A stretch of 64,000 bases of DNA from an uncultured Coprobacillus sp. (GTDB taxonomy: Bacteria; Bacillota_I; Bacilli_A; ML615J-28; CAG-698): positions 7,468 through 71,467 of the forward strand of contig CAYLPZ010000006.1 of NCBI GenBank assembly GCA_964385755.1, in the 5' to 3' direction. Below, in pieces: positions 9,962 to 14,539 of this stretch (its first letter is position 1; each line of letters opens with the position of its first letter). The notes under the pieces are model-generated. The model was not told where the DNA came from. It saw only the letters and a program-made list of their open reading frames with translations, and ran no database searches. The translations under genes were made by a program, and so were the position numbers.

Positions 9962-9982
9962 ACTAGGAGCAAAACTCCTAGT
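9962..9982 (-). terminator. Terminator closing the sipW/TasA-like operon
   Basis: actaggag-caaaa-ctcctagt hairpin with an A/T run on each side. Confidence 0.75.
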
Positions 9983-10001
9983 CTAGTTTTTTTTATAATT
10001 C

Positions 10002-12170
10002 TTATGGTTCAACAATTACTGTGCCACCAGCAACAGTTACTAAGCTTATATAGTCACTATATGCTGCGTTACCAGCACCGCCTTCGTTATTACCTTGATC
10101 ATCTTGGCTTCCATTATCAACCCATACTGCATTAACAGAATCAGTCAAAACAGCACTAATGTCAACATTTTCTAATGTAATTTGAGCTCCTGCTGTTGAT
10201 CCAACTAGAATTGCAGCCTTTTTAGCTGAGTCAAATGTTGAATTCTTAACTGTTAATTTTGTTAATTGACGATCTGCTTTTGTTACATATTGGTCAGAAA
10301 TCTTAATTGCTCTACCAACACTTTCTTCAGTTGTAATAGCACAACCATTCATTTCAACATTAACACCAGCACATAACCATAATGCATAAAGATCTCCTTC
10401 AATGTTAATATTAACATTTGTCATAGTAACTTCTTTTCCAGCATTATTTACAGCTACTGGACTATTAAAAGTAACATTTTCTAATACCCAGTCACAATCA
10501 GCAAGTTGAATATCTGCGATATTCCAAGTATCAGAAAAAGTAGTAGTTCCCTTAACTGTACCATTTTTAATTGTAACAGTAGCAGCACTATTTTTAGCAC
10601 CTAGACCTAGCATATAACTAGATTCAATCTTTAAAGATTTACCATTTAAGTCAATAACTACTTCTTGAGTTTCATTACCACCCATGCGGTTAATTCCACC
10701 AACTCCACTTGTTCCAAGATTAGCTATTGAAACTACAAGATCTTGACCTAATGTTACTTTAATTATTTTTTCATTAACTGTTAATGATTTTTCTAATTCA
10801 GAAGCACTATAAACTGTTGTTTCTAAAGCAATAGTTACATTTGAAGCATTATTAGTTGCATCTGGAACAAATCCAGTTCTTCCAGAAACAATTGCACCTG
10901 CAGAAGCATAAGTTTTAACAGTTGCATATTTTACAATTGAATCTGAAATAACGTTTCCAGTAACTGTACAACCAGTTAAAACAATAGTTCCTACAACACC
11001 ACCGATGTCACGATTACCTTTAACAGTAGTATTAGAAACAGTGTTTAAAGAAAGTTCACCCGCATTTATAAATCCTACGATTCCACCAATCTTATCACCA
11101 TTAGCATCATCATTCATATTAATACCAACAACTGTAGAATTATTTACGCTACAACCTTTTACTGTTCCAGAAAGATAACCAGCTACAACACCAACATAGT
11201 GACTGCCTGTAACATTTGCATTTTCAAAGTTAACATTTTTAACTACTACGCCAGTAGTGTTTTCAAGCCATCCAAAGAAACCAGAAACAACATATTCAGA
11301 ATTTGATGGATTGTTAACTGTCATATTTTTAATTGTATTGTCTTGTCCATCAAAAGTGCCTTGGAATTGTGTAGCACCAGTTTGTCCAATTGGATTCCAT
11401 TCGATACCAGCTAAATCAACATCATTCATAAGTTTTACAGTTTTACCTGCATAATTATTACCACGTTCATTTAAACTCTTTTCAAATAATACTAAGTCAG
11501 TAGCATTATAAAGTAATACTTCATTTGCAGCAGCATTTTCAACAACTGTATTACCTTGAACAGCTTTAACTGAGAATGCAACTTTACAAGTTTTACCTTG
11601 ATATTGATTTCCAGCAGTAGTTGGTAATTCAACAGTAACAGTTGTTCTTTCAACTTCACCTTGTTGTGTTAAAACAGCCCAATTACTAACTGCAGTCATA
11701 CCATCAAAAGTTTGAGCTGCTTCGCTACCTCTTTGTAAAGTAATTACTAATCCAGTAAATAAGTCAAAGCCTTCTAACATTTCTAATTTTGTTTGATATT
11801 GAACTGTAACATTACTTAAATTTTCAACAACTAAATCAAAAGATACTTTATCACCAGGAGTCATTTGATTGAAAGCTAGTTCATTATTAACAACAGAAAC
11901 GGTGCCACCATTTTTGAAATTTGTTTCATTTGCAGCATTTGTTGCATCACTAACTGTTCCATTTACATTAATTAGAGTTGGAGAATATAATTCTACGCTT
12001 TCTACAAATGCGTTTACGTCTACTTTACCAGAGCTAATTGATACATCTACTCTACTTTCATCAGTGAATAATGCAAATGTTCCACCAATTAGAAGCATTA
12101 AGCTAAGTACTAATGTTAGTACAGAAGTTAAAATAATTCTTGTTTTGTTTTTCATTTTTTTCCCTTTCAT
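10002..12170 (-). CDS. SipW-dependent TasA/CalY-like subunit fused to a large beta-helical (GLUG/pectin-lyase-like) adhesin region; likely start 12155
   Basis: Signal peptide ending GGTFA|LFTD, TasA-like core (SSGKVDV, MTPGD, GNQYQGK), then VKLMNDVDL..WNPIG..FQGTFDG and G/V-rich beta-helix repeats. Confidence 0.75.
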   Translation of the reverse strand: MKGKKMKNKTRIILTSVLTLVLSLMLLIGGTFALFTDESRVDVSISSGKVDVNAFVESVELYSPTLINVNGTVSDATNAANETNFKNGGTVSVVNNELAFNQMTPGDKVSFDLVVENLSNVTVQYQTKLEMLEGFDLFTGLVITLQRGSEAAQTFDGMTAVSNWAVLTQQGEVERTTVTVELPTTAGNQYQGKTCKVAFSVKAVQGNTVVENAAANEVLLYNATDLVLFEKSLNERGNNYAGKTVKLMNDVDLAGIEWNPIGQTGATQFQGTFDGQDNTIKNMTVNNPSNSEYVVSGFFGWLENTTGVVVKNVNFENANVTGSHYVGVVAGYLSGTVKGCSVNNSTVVGINMNDDANGDKIGGIVGFINAGELSLNTVSNTTVKGNRDIGGVVGTIVLTGCTVTGNVISDSIVKYATVKTYASAGAIVSGRTGFVPDATNNASNVTIALETTVYSASELEKSLTVNEKIIKVTLGQDLVVSIANLGTSGVGGINRMGGNETQEVVIDLNGKSLKIESSYMLGLGAKNSAATVTIKNGTVKGTTTFSDTWNIADIQLADCDWVLENVTFNSPVAVNNAGKEVTMTNVNINIEGDLYALWLCAGVNVEMNGCAITTEESVGRAIKISDQYVTKADRQLTKLTVKNSTFDSAKKAAILVGSTAGAQITLENVDISAVLTDSVNAVWVDNGSQDDQGNNEGGAGNAAYSDYISLVTVAGGTVIVEP

Positions 12171-12297
12171 TTTTAAATTAATTTTTATAATTAATTATAC
12201 ATCAAATGTTAGATTCTCAATTCGCTATAAATCTTTCAATAAGACTGACAGTATAATTAATTATTAACAGTATGATATATAAGTAATTTTAATGTGA

Positions 12298-12921
12298 TTA
12301 TTCTTGAGTAATTTGAATCGCGTTAACTAATAAGTCAAACATAACTTCTTGATTTTGTGCTTCGTTATTTGTTGCAAGATGTTCGAATACAATTTTCACA
12401 ACAAATACTTTCGCATTATCATTTTTAGCCATTGTTTGAGAATCAATAACTACTTGTCCATCATTTTCATATTCTGATAAAAATCCTTTATCAACACCAT
12501 CAACATAAACTTTTAATTGCTCTGCTAATGCATTATTAACACTCGTAAGCTTGATAATTACATCATACTCAAATGCGACATCGCCATTATTTGAAATTTT
12601 CATAGTAGCTTCATAGCTTGTTCCAGGAACAACTTTTTCACCTTCAGAAACATCAAATACATTATCATCTTGAGTATTTGAATCTGTAAAATCGACAACT
12701 GTATCTGAAGAGTTTGTAATTAAATAACCAGTTTGACTGTCCAAAATAGTTTTGTTTAGATTAATACGCTCTAACTTAACATCTAATGAACCAGCAGTAA
12801 GATGATTATCTACTGATACGCTATCGCTCCATAATGCATATGTACCAGCTATAAGCATTGTTACGCATAATAAAATAATTACGCTTGATGCTAAAAGTAC
12901 TGACATTTTGCTTTTCTTCAT
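12298..12921 (-). CDS. SipW-dependent TasA/camelysin-family subunit (candidate major fibre subunit)
   Basis: Signal peptide ending AGTYA|LWSD, NHLTAGSLDV, VVPGTS, ISNNGDVAFEY, NNEAQNQ. Confidence 0.8.
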   Translation of the reverse strand: MKKSKMSVLLASSVIILLCVTMLIAGTYALWSDSVSVDNHLTAGSLDVKLERINLNKTILDSQTGYLITNSSDTVVDFTDSNTQDDNVFDVSEGEKVVPGTSYEATMKISNNGDVAFEYDVIIKLTSVNNALAEQLKVYVDGVDKGFLSEYENDGQVVIDSQTMAKNDNAKVFVVKIVFEHLATNNEAQNQEVMFDLLVNAIQITQE

Positions 12922-12980
12922 TAATATATCCTCCTTCCCAATTTATTCAGTTAAGTAAATTTCTTAATCATTTTAATTAA

Positions 12981-13121
12981 TTATTTATCATTAATTTCAC
13001 TATTAATTTTTCTTTTTCTTCTTTCTTTTATTTTATCTATTAAATCTAATGATAGAACAAACATACTGAAAGCTGCCATAATAAATGCGATTATGATAAA
13101 TATAATAATAACTGTTTTCAT
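12981..13121 (-). CDS. Small single-pass membrane protein, 46 aa (below the ORF track cut-off)
   Basis: AAGGAG RBS overlapping the sipW stop; MKTVIIIFIIIAFIMAAFSMFVLSLDLIDKIKERRKRKINSEINDK*. Confidence 0.7.
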   Translation of the reverse strand: MKTVIIIFIIIAFIMAAFSMFVLSLDLIDKIKERRKRKINSEINDK

Positions 13122-13928: not shown

Positions 13929-13945
13929 TTTTATTTTCCTTTCAA

Positions 13946-14419
13946 TTATCTATATTCAGCTAATAAATCAATATAAAATGAAACACTTGTTTTCTGAGAT
14001 TCATTTCCAACATCCTTAGGCATTGTGTAAGAAATATTAATAGTAGTAATATTTTCTCCAATAATTAAAGCATCACCATTAAATAATTCACTCAATTTTT
14101 TTTGTATTGAAACATTATTTGCTTTAATATCTACGATAATAAAATCTTTTAATAATCCACCATCATCTTTATGAAATTTTAATTTTATTTCATAATCACT
14201 TGCTTTTTTGTCATTTATATTTATTTTGTAATCTAATGTTTTCCCTGGATATAAGCCACTAATATTTGCTTTGAATGTCTCTGCTGAATTTCCATCAATT
14301 ACAACTTCCACATTTTCTCTTAAATCTGAATGGGCATTTATTTTCAGATAATATGCACAAAGGATAATTGTCATTACATTAATGATTACAATTAAAATAA
14401 GTTTCTTAAAATTACTCAT
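13946..14419 (-). CDS. Secreted or anchored TasA-fold-like accessory subunit
   Basis: N-terminal hydrophobic segment, ISGLYPGKT (cf. N.xPGD) and YTMPKDVGNESQ (cf. LPxxAGNxYQG) typical of TasA-like folds. Confidence 0.55.
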   Translation of the reverse strand: MSNFKKLILIVIINVMTIILCAYYLKINAHSDLRENVEVVIDGNSAETFKANISGLYPGKTLDYKININDKKASDYEIKLKFHKDDGGLLKDFIIVDIKANNVSIQKKLSELFNGDALIIGENITTINISYTMPKDVGNESQKTSVSFYIDLLAEYR

Positions 14420-14454
14420 ATATTATTCCTTATCCTATTCTTTATAAAAAAGCG

Positions 14455-14468
14455 AAAAAAAAAAAAAA
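14455..14468. repeat. A14 homopolymer (T14 on the coding strand) in the leader of the sipW operon
   Basis: 14 consecutive A, inside an imperfect inverted repeat cgaaaaa (14453) / tttttcg (14476-14482). Confidence 0.9.
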
Positions 14469-14509
14469 GAAATAATTTTTCGTTTTTCTTTCCAACCTTT
14501 CCCCATTAT

Positions 14510-14539
14510 AATATACACTCTCCACCCGAAAAAAGTCAA
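14510..14539 (-). promoter_or_regulatory. Candidate sigma-A promoter of the sipW operon
   Basis: Minus strand TTGACT - 18 nt - TATATT, with a second TATAAT just downstream. Confidence 0.45.

Follow-up and report, generated by a model that had tools for sequence, protein, structure and literature searches.

In Bacillus subtilis, TasA polymerises by strand donation: each mature subunit lodges its N-terminal strand in the sandwich of the next one, and TapA can supply the first strand (PMC9674648, PMC10151520). BsaA of Clostridium perfringens similarly forms a polymer that requires SipW but no sortase, is tethered to the membrane before its release and is locked by Asn-Lys isopeptide bonds; its authors also drew attention to operons with several paralogues and to possible heteropolymers (PMC7395162, PMC11580942). 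In Bacillus cereus, TasA and CalY join in heterofilaments, with CapP as the accessory protein, in a system described as sortase-independent (PMC13082335), while the archaeal AbpA is a donor-strand polymer whose larger neighbour AbpB has been proposed to act as both initiator and adhesin (PMC9245690). So far, work on TasA-family fibres has dealt almost exclusively with the matrix scaffolds of Bacillus and C. perfringens biofilms. Here we describe a five-gene operon in a 64-kb stretch of DNA from an uncultured Coprobacillus sp., a gut bacterium of low GC content (contig CAYLPZ010000006.1; the whole stretch is hereafter called the window) that in our judgement probably makes a TasA/BsaA-type (PF12389) surface fibre, polymerised by strand donation and independent of sortase. 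Its five open reading frames (ORFs) lie head to tail on the minus strand between positions 9960 and 14539, with a promoter-like site at one end and a terminator at the other, and all of these elements are present as a first-pass annotation of the DNA had listed them. In order of transcription, the genes encode a small TasA-like protein (g1), a SipW-type signal peptidase, a very small membrane protein (g3), a short TasA-like subunit (g4) and a long subunit that carries a large C-terminal passenger (g5; Table 1).

In its layout the operon resembles tapA-sipW-tasA of B. subtilis: sipW lies inside the operon, with an accessory gene upstream, a fibre subunit downstream and no sortase, the signal peptides are of the same type (GT-aromatic-A↓x-F/W-x-D), and the subunits would share the jelly roll with an N-terminal donor strand (8AUR, PMC9674648). 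However, none of the five genes is orthologous to those of B. subtilis. TapA is replaced by a 157-amino-acid (aa), apparently membrane-tethered TasA paralogue without a SipW motif, g3 is an additional conserved single-pass membrane protein, a second class of subunit is fused to a beta-helix passenger of about 500 aa, and SipW itself differs from the B. subtilis enzyme by an insertion and a conserved coiled-coil tail. The sipW-bsaA-bsaB-bsaC operon of C. perfringens is likewise clostridial, includes a SipW and is independent of sortase, and it encodes two paralogues of the TasA family along with BsaC, a large protein of the adhesion type with a VWA domain, but there sipW comes first, genes like g1 and g3 are missing and the adhesion domain resides in the separate BsaC instead of being fused to a TasA-like domain. 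The B. cereus CapP-TasA-CalY system has no adhesin fusion, and CapP, which is specific to the B. cereus group and chaperone-like, differs from g1 in that it is not a TasA paralogue with a membrane helix (PMC13082335). The archaeal pair is similar in that AbpA is a TasA homologue and the distal domains of AbpB are proposed adhesins, as those of g5 might be (7UEG, PMC9245690); it is archaeal, has no dedicated signal peptidase and has other operon content, and the kinship is at the level of profiles and structures only.

The first-pass annotation had read the locus as an uncharacterised SipW/TasA-type fibre operon with differentiated subunits. This is largely right, and three differentiated TasA-like proteins (g1, g4 and g5) can be recognised, but the system is less novel than was claimed: it is uncharacterised for this clade and architecture, and our literature search found no paper linking SipW with Christensenellales, whereas sortase-independent, multi-paralogue SipW/TasA fibres have been published (PMC7395162, PMC11580942, PMC13082335, PMC9245690). 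Since donor-strand exchange, sortase independence and multi-paralogue operons had all been described for the family, the gain is incremental and not conceptual. What distinguishes the present operon is its membrane-tethered mini-TasA, its extra membrane protein and its adhesin-fused subunits, and operons of this kind are widespread in uncultured gut Clostridia.

The proposed function rests on observations of gene anatomy, TasA homology, fold class, conserved catalytic residues and cleavage motif, and synteny. For comparison, we scanned one genome of every GTDB species with a sequence pattern. This returned 41 related loci, 40 of them with a g4 relative, whose ORFs we mapped with hidden Markov models. 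The sipW product matches the NCBIfam SipW model NF046067 (E 2.5e-16, 59.8 bits, cut-off 190) and the archaeal/endoplasmic reticulum (ER)-type signal peptidase I model TIGR02228 (E 2.9e-11, 43.5 bits, cut-off 51.85); a Pfam scan of the protein returned no peptidase match. Its catalytic boxes contain S61 (in SDSM), H123 (in THR, thus His and not Lys) and D143 (in GDN). The residues S61-M62, H123-R124 and G142-D143-N144 are kept in 97-100% of 35 SipW orthologues from the related loci. Because these boxes are conserved and because the HR and GDN boxes align with human SEC11A/C, the enzyme is predicted to use the Ser-His(-Asp) chemistry of SipW/SEC11-type peptidases. Judged by its sequence, it is a divergent member of the SipW type and not an equivalog of the Bacillus enzyme. 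In the window and in 35 related loci, SipW is encoded beside proteins with the cognate signal peptide.

The peptidase has two hydrophobic transmembrane helices, one N-terminal and one C-terminal. The second is followed by a charged, coiled-coil-like tail (13131-13330, minus strand), in which EIEELKxQLAELQ is kept across the 35 orthologues. This conserved charged motif suggests that SipW does something besides catalysis, or that it interacts with a partner, for which g3 is a candidate. The SipW of B. subtilis is also reported to be bifunctional.

The first-pass annotation had pointed to a SipW cleavage signature, G-T-(F/Y)-A↓L-(F/W)-x-D, in two substrates, and this is borne out. When all six frames of the window were scanned with the relaxed pattern [GAS]T[FYWV][AS]x[FWYLM]x[polar], only two matches were found, GTYALWSD in g4 and GTFALFTD in g5, both located at the end of the N-terminal hydrophobic segment. 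The same pattern matched three times among 566 unrelated ORFs of the related loci, and one of the three is itself a SipW-type substrate; the occurrence of the motif in both g4 and g5 is far beyond chance. In good agreement with this, TIGR04088, which describes SipW-dependent signal peptides, scores 25.0 bits for g4 and 25.7 bits for g5 (cut-off 19), and the strict pattern is conserved in 35 of 41 g4 orthologues. The signal peptide of g4 comprises residues 1-29, with predicted cleavage at GTYA↓LWSD, and both proteins would thus be cut by SipW after G-T-(F/Y)-A.

Several lines of evidence tie g4 and g5 to TasA. The match of g5 to PF12389 ('Peptidase_M73') spans residues 14-206 and profile positions 7-192 of 196, and the same family is found in 26 of 34 g5 homologues at E<=0.01 (best 3.6e-7); for g4, with 142 relatives, most of the matches listed carry a precomputed PF12389 assignment. 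A search of the PDB with the g5-family profile returned B. subtilis TasA as the two best entries (8AUR_A, E 1.2e-4; 5OF1_A, E 2e-4), in an alignment that covers the L-x-PGDK and NxYQG...A(T/V)Q blocks. TasA was not found in PDB searches with the single sequences of g4, g5 or SipW, or with the g4- and g1-family profiles. The g4 family aligns with the N-domain of g5 over 184 columns in hhalign (99.4%, E 3e-21), from which g4 is a paralogue of that domain, and on sequence grounds both families clearly belong in the TasA/CalY/BsaA family (PF12389). They are family members and not TasA orthologues, as g5 scores 18.2 bits against the TasA equivalog NF046066 (cut-off 450). The BsaA-family model TIGR04090 is not reached by g4 (17.9 bits, cut-off 60).

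The predicted fold is in line with this assignment. The AlphaFold2 model of g4 (mean predicted local distance difference test score, pLDDT, 80.6) is a beta-sandwich preceded by the signal helix, and its sole disordered segment, with pLDDT below 50, comprises residues 33-41, just past the predicted cleavage site. The N-terminal segment of mature g4 is thus conserved, yet unstructured in the monomer model; the donor strand of BsaA is likewise reported to be disordered in the monomer (PMC11580942). In a Foldseek search of the PDB, the g4 model had three matches at E<1e-3, namely the pilin domain of PapG (the best), the TasA fibre 8AUR (E 6.9e-4) and AbpA 7UEG (8.1e-4), all of which are donor-strand filament subunits.

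Conservation within this segment may hold a further parallel to BsaA. Among 31 g4 orthologues, three residues (H40, K57 and E95) are invariant and a fourth, N39, is nearly so; N39 and H40 both fall within the presumed donor strand. From their conservation, N39, K57 and E95 are candidates for the equivalent of the BsaA isopeptide triad N35-E56-K74, and g4 may possess a BsaA-like Asn-Lys isopeptide lock. Most g5-type proteins also have Asn at the position equivalent to g4 N39; the g5 of the window has Asp42.

The kinship of g1 was the weakest of the claims made for the operon, and it holds on sequence profiles and modelling. A word-indexed search gave only two relatives, and hhalign on that thin alignment was uninformative (0.8%). 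An exhaustive search of representatives yielded 414 clusters (50% identity), whose members are about 160 aa long, and the resulting profile aligns in hhalign with the g4 family (93%, E 3.5e-7) and the g5 family (96.8%, E 2.5e-10). Of the TasA-like domain, the aligned part is the C-terminal two-thirds, in which the YPG and (M/L)P..(V/A)GNE(A/Y)QG....F motifs are found; no Pfam family covers g1. The AlphaFold2 model of g1 (pLDDT 77) is a complete jelly roll. In Foldseek it resembles many jelly rolls (CUB domains, FlhE), with the top TM-score (0.49) and the longest alignment given by monomeric TasA, 5OF2. We conclude that g1 is a TasA paralogue.

The SipW motif is absent from g1 and from all 33 of its orthologues, and g1 does not match TIGR04088. 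In the g1 family the N-terminus carries positive charge, the hydrophobic helix measures about 20 residues, and no small-residue cleavage site is conserved after it. Since the N-terminal helix is kept and the SipW motif is lacking, the simplest reading of the sequence is that the TasA-like domain of g1 remains attached to the membrane. The first-pass annotation had stated that TapA is missing, and by sequence this is so: no TapA model in NCBIfam or Pfam matches g1, and the two have in common only the position upstream of sipW and a possible role. Because g1 occupies the tapA slot, however, it is the obvious candidate for a functional counterpart of TapA.

The third gene, g3, encodes a transmembrane helix followed by a basic tail, and is homologous to the N-terminal transmembrane segment and tail of the third gene in related operons. 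In most related loci that gene is 210-290 aa long and has a conserved C-terminal domain (e.g. L003 5237-5932, with ...DEKYLELSPEYKGYYDEIV...NRLVRLKIKRG...), cytoplasmic by the positive-inside rule; the long form gave nothing significant in Pfam or NCBIfam. The short form of 38-72 aa, which consists of helix and basic tail only, occurs in the window and in loci L014, L016, L023, L024, L026, L030 and L038. The sequences thus indicate that g3 is a genuine conserved gene of the operon, present here in its short form.

Past residue ~215, the g5 of the window matches no Pfam model, and the nature of its passenger is seen best in its homologues. Among 34 of these, nine carry Glug and three Pectate_lyase_5 ('putative pectate lyase-like adhesive domain'); others have PF05342 (Peptidase_M26_N) or PF13229 (Beta_helix). 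The g5-family profile also matches weakly, at profile positions 514-649, the pentapeptide-repeat beta-helix 2XT2. From the domain type, it is reasonable to infer that the passenger is an adhesin. At the C-terminus of g5 there is no transmembrane segment and no LPXTG-like sorting signal.

Table 1. Features of the operon in the window; numbering starts at the first letter of the 64-kb stretch.
Feature	Position	Strand	Evidence
g1, 157 aa, putative membrane-tethered TasA-like jelly-roll protein	13946..14419	-	
sipW, 265 aa, ER/archaeal-type signal peptidase I	13131..13928	-	
g3, 46 aa, single-pass membrane protein	12981..13121	-	
g4, 207 aa, short TasA-like subunit	12298..12921	-	
g4 cleavage motif, G-T-Y-A-L-W-S-D	12823..12846	-	motif scan
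g5, 722 aa, long subunit	10002..12170	-	
g5 cleavage motif, G-T-F-A-L-F-T-D	12060..12083	-	motif scan
TasA-like (pilin) domain of g5, ~residues 34-210, including presumed N-terminal donor strand LFTDESRVDVSI	11541..12071	-	PF12389, PDB profile match, hhalign
g5 passenger, ~residues 225-722: GLUG-repeat to ~450, then second repetitive beta-helix-like domain	10005..11498	-	Pfam families of homologues; boundaries approximate and inferred
Promoter-like site, TTGACT-18 nt-TATATT	14510..14539	-	consensus match 10/12; sigma-70-like
Intrinsic terminator	9960..9984	-	11-bp stem, 4 GC pairs, 3-nt loop, T-rich tail

All five genes have conserved homologues elsewhere, with the order kept. In ~28 of the 40 related loci with a g4 relative, the order is g1-sipW-(g3)-g4 followed by one to four long TasA fusions of 500-980 aa, and of the other loci most are truncated by the end of a contig; the distribution across gut metagenome-assembled genomes (MAGs), which the first-pass annotation had proposed as a check, is thus broad. 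The GC content of the related loci ranges from 0.20 to 0.50. In the closest loci, identity to the window is ~66% for SipW, ~62% for g4, which is the best-conserved subunit of the operon, and ~49% for g1, with the g5 passenger diverging fastest. The records come from gut MAGs of buffalo, sheep, deer, goat and human (Hadza), labelled Clostridia bacterium, Christensenellaceae bacterium or Ca. Scatosoma, and some of the names are evidently mis-binned. The flanks of the related loci share nothing with those of the window, so the cassette is either portable or old. A mobile or phage origin was rejected, as no relatives were found on viral contigs and no mobility genes were seen.

The claim that the operon works without a sortase holds for the window and for the 40 related loci. 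The sortase TLxTC motif was found neither in the window nor within 6 kb of the related operons, no scanned window protein matches a Sortase family in Pfam, and none of the operon subunits, here or in the 40 loci, carries a sorting-signal tail, the only such tail in the window belonging to an unrelated protease (see below). The operon thus differs from sortase-assembled Gram-positive pili, having neither an LPXTG-type signal on its subunits nor a sortase gene nearby.

Taken together with what is known of the family, these features suggest the following scheme. The g4 and g5 proteins would be exported via Sec and cut after G-T-(F/Y)-A by the operon's own SipW (Ser61-His123-Asp143), which would free an N-terminal strand, LWSDSVSVDNHL in g4 and LFTDESRVDVSI in g5. 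The freed strand would enter the open beta-sandwich of the next subunit by donor-strand exchange, as in TasA, BsaA and AbpA, and a filament would grow. The shaft would consist of g4, which is small, is preceded by the strongest ribosome-binding site of the operon and is conserved better than the other subunits. The g5 protein would be incorporated through its TasA-like domain and display its ~500-residue GLUG/beta-helix passenger as an adhesin; because the passenger is C-terminal and the donor strand N-terminal, the passenger would point away from the strand-receiving subunit. As SipW could not release g1, this membrane-bound protein would act either as acceptor of the last strand, i.e. as an anchor or terminator (compare PapH and basal pilins), or as a tethered donor of the first strand, i.e. 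as a TapA-like nucleator. Probably, g3 and the conserved cytoplasmic tail of SipW would form or regulate the assembly site in the membrane.

A more specific version of this scheme, which we put forward tentatively and regard as possible rather than probable, is a three-part pilus built without sortase, chaperone or usher. In it, g1 would be the base or terminator, g4 a shaft that is possibly locked by isopeptide bonds, and one to four interchangeable g5-type proteins the distal adhesins, with assembly organised by the SipW tail and g3. Such a pilus would parallel the chaperone-usher pili (PapG/FimH, PapH), in which a neighbour's strand completes an Ig-like pilin domain, the adhesin has two domains and a terminal subunit is possible. 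Homology to those pili is not demonstrated; here there is no chaperone, usher or outer membrane, and the adhesin domain is C-terminal and not N-terminal.

A number of points weigh against a fibre. The PF12389 scores of the window's own proteins fall just below the gathering score of 22.5 (g4 21.3 bits, g5 18.9), and SipW stays under both of its NCBIfam cut-offs. Foldseek TM-scores are low, 0.28-0.39 for g4 and up to 0.49 for g1; for g4, modest values are expected because the monomer model includes the signal helix and lacks the complementing strand. The g1 model is as similar to CUB-type jelly rolls as it is to TasA. The window DNA was found in two gut-metagenome runs and in no RNA run. Polymerisation, the roles of the subunits and adhesion are matters of analogy, polymerisation being extrapolated from the behaviour of the family (PMC9674648, PMC11580942), and for assembly polarity and the role of g1 the sequence is compatible with either of the options given above.

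These points leave room for other products of the operon. It could make a released biofilm-matrix scaffold, like the gels of TasA and BsaA, instead of a cell-attached pilus, with g5 as a matrix-bound accessory and g1 as a shed, chaperone-like nucleator. All characterised bacterial relatives are indeed biofilm-matrix fibres (PMC9674648, PMC7395162, PMC13082335), g4 and g5 have no anchor of their own, and just past its helix the g1 of the window could fit an ordinary -3/-1 signal-peptidase site (I-N-A↓H). The hydrophobic segment of g1, however, is about 20 residues long and is followed by no conserved AxA-like site, which favours a permanent tether; moreover, BsaA oligomers are reported to be membrane-anchored prior to release (PMC11580942), and big GLUG/beta-helix passengers are typical of adhesins. 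We therefore consider a released scaffold rather unlikely. Less likely still, and in our view improbable, is that there is no fibre at all and that SipW serves secreted monomers. On this reading, a beta-helix enzyme or adhesin would be secreted with the N-domain of g5 as its carrier or wall-binding module, and g4 would be a soluble jelly roll of the 'camelysin' kind. The peptidase annotation that speaks for this, still preserved in the Pfam name Peptidase_M73, has been judged a probable misidentification (PMC11580942). As a monomer, TasA does form a stable jelly roll that complements itself (5OF1/5OF2), and polymers are here a prediction; yet every structurally studied member of the family polymerises by strand donation, and g4 has no other domain, is the best-conserved gene, has the strongest Shine-Dalgarno (SD) sequence and keeps a mature N-terminus that is conserved but unstructured in the model.

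It is very improbable that the operon makes spore appendages or coat material. The PDB name of TasA is 'Spore coat-associated protein N', and CotH and SpoIIE-family domains are encoded in the window, but the SpoIIE-type protein is part of a partner-switching module (STAS, anti-sigma kinase) of a kind that also occurs in non-sporulating bacteria. In addition, no sporulation genes flank the operon, either here or in the related loci, whose flanks are unrelated, and the promoter-like site is of the sigma-70 type.

A sortase-independent surface fibre, as we favour, would extend the TasA family to host-associated uncultured gut Clostridia, i.e. to Christensenellales-like MAGs from humans, ruminants and birds. 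The arrangement suggests a modular logic in which base, shaft and swappable adhesins are all TasA-like domains served by a private signal peptidase. If this is true, the cassette would offer a handle on how abundant uncultured commensals attach to mucus, food particles and other cells, as well as a simple scaffold that assembles by itself and by nature accepts large passengers at the C-terminus. Should the three-part pilus prove real, it would be a Gram-positive counterpart of the tip-adhesin chaperone-usher pili, workable with or without a thick wall.

As for signals, the gaps between the genes from g1 to g5 are, in order, 17, 9, 59 and 127 nt, and an SD-like sequence precedes each gene, the strongest being AAGGAGG upstream of g4; AAGGAG lies 7 nt upstream of g3. 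A second ATG of g5 at 12155 has the SD-like GAAAGGGA upstream and agrees with the database protein P0121 (717 aa), so that this codon, giving 717 aa, is more likely the true start than 12170. Terminator-like matches number two in the region against 0.7 expected, and the terminator at 9984-9960 is convincing. Promoter-like matches (39 against 34.4 expected) are not above chance in this AT-rich DNA, and the promoter-like site is for that reason to be read as a consensus match only. Between it and g1, the 5' leader contains a run of 14 T at 14455-14468 (minus strand), which could be a slipped-strand (phase-variation) tract or merely part of an AT-rich leader. An internal terminator between g4 and g5, like the one after bsaA, was considered and rejected: the 127-nt spacer (12171-12297, minus strand) holds only a long, AT-rich, imperfect hairpin of -22.2 kcal/mol, which is not significant (z -1.9). 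By analogy with the terminator after bsaA in C. perfringens, this hairpin could nevertheless modulate the ratio of shaft to adhesin. Rfam and tRNA scans of the window were both empty, and a divergent ORF of 153 aa at 14578-15039 gave nothing significant in Pfam or NCBIfam.

Two side observations concern the reach of the cassette. Loci L023 and L026, with a GC content of 0.20-0.22, contain the same cassette with the short g3 in genomes of uncertain placement. In locus L041, from an Actinomycetales MAG (GC 0.60), a protein with the identical motif GTFALWSD adjoins a weak SipW-like ORF (5884-6669 and 6876-7457), so the pair of signal peptide and peptidase extends well beyond Firmicutes.

The first-pass annotation had also taken the host to be probably wall-less, which we find unsupported: the window reads well in genetic code 11, and the relatives are labelled Clostridia, Christensenellaceae or Ca. 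Scatosoma. The length of the ORFs read with table 11 rules out genetic code 4, which by itself does not settle the wall status. A lipoprotein-type exported protein of 2487 aa (46173-53636, minus strand), with subtilase (Peptidase_S8), PA, Fn3_5 and Big_2 domains and six BspA-type LRR_5 blocks, ends in NTLPTTNVNKVG-LAATAVTALASLVVLFVFI-KKRFWL, i.e. in LPTTN, a hydrophobic stretch and KKRFWL, and this is the only such tail in the window. The tail hints at a sortase-type sorting signal and hence at a cell wall, and is therefore evidence against a wall-less host. The guess may have come from the richness of the surface proteome in lipoproteins, which is also common in Firmicutes and is apparent here because nearly all large exported proteins of the window have a lipobox Cys past the signal peptide (e.g. 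those at 19485-21926, 22040-23428, 34012-37170, 41883-44453 and 44465-46162).

The rest of the window contains several other recognisable systems, all on the minus strand. A Bat/MoxR-type cluster at 23447-29790 consists of a MoxR AAA_3 ATPase, a DUF58 protein, a BatA-VWA protein and a large VWA protein. The partner-switching module mentioned above lies at 54682-61137 and comprises an HD_4+STAS protein, a STAS+APH-type kinase, a SpoIIE-type PP2C phosphatase and an HATPase_c_2 anti-sigma-like kinase, followed by a CotH-kinase lipoprotein. At 62121-63722, a protein of 533 aa without a signal peptide combines an N-terminal TIR_2 domain with BspA-type leucine-rich repeats; the combination is unusual, and the protein may be related to defence or signalling. 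Finally, a member of the choloylglycine (bile-salt) hydrolase family is encoded at 1534-2511 (PF02275, E 7.7e-105), which fits a gut habitat.

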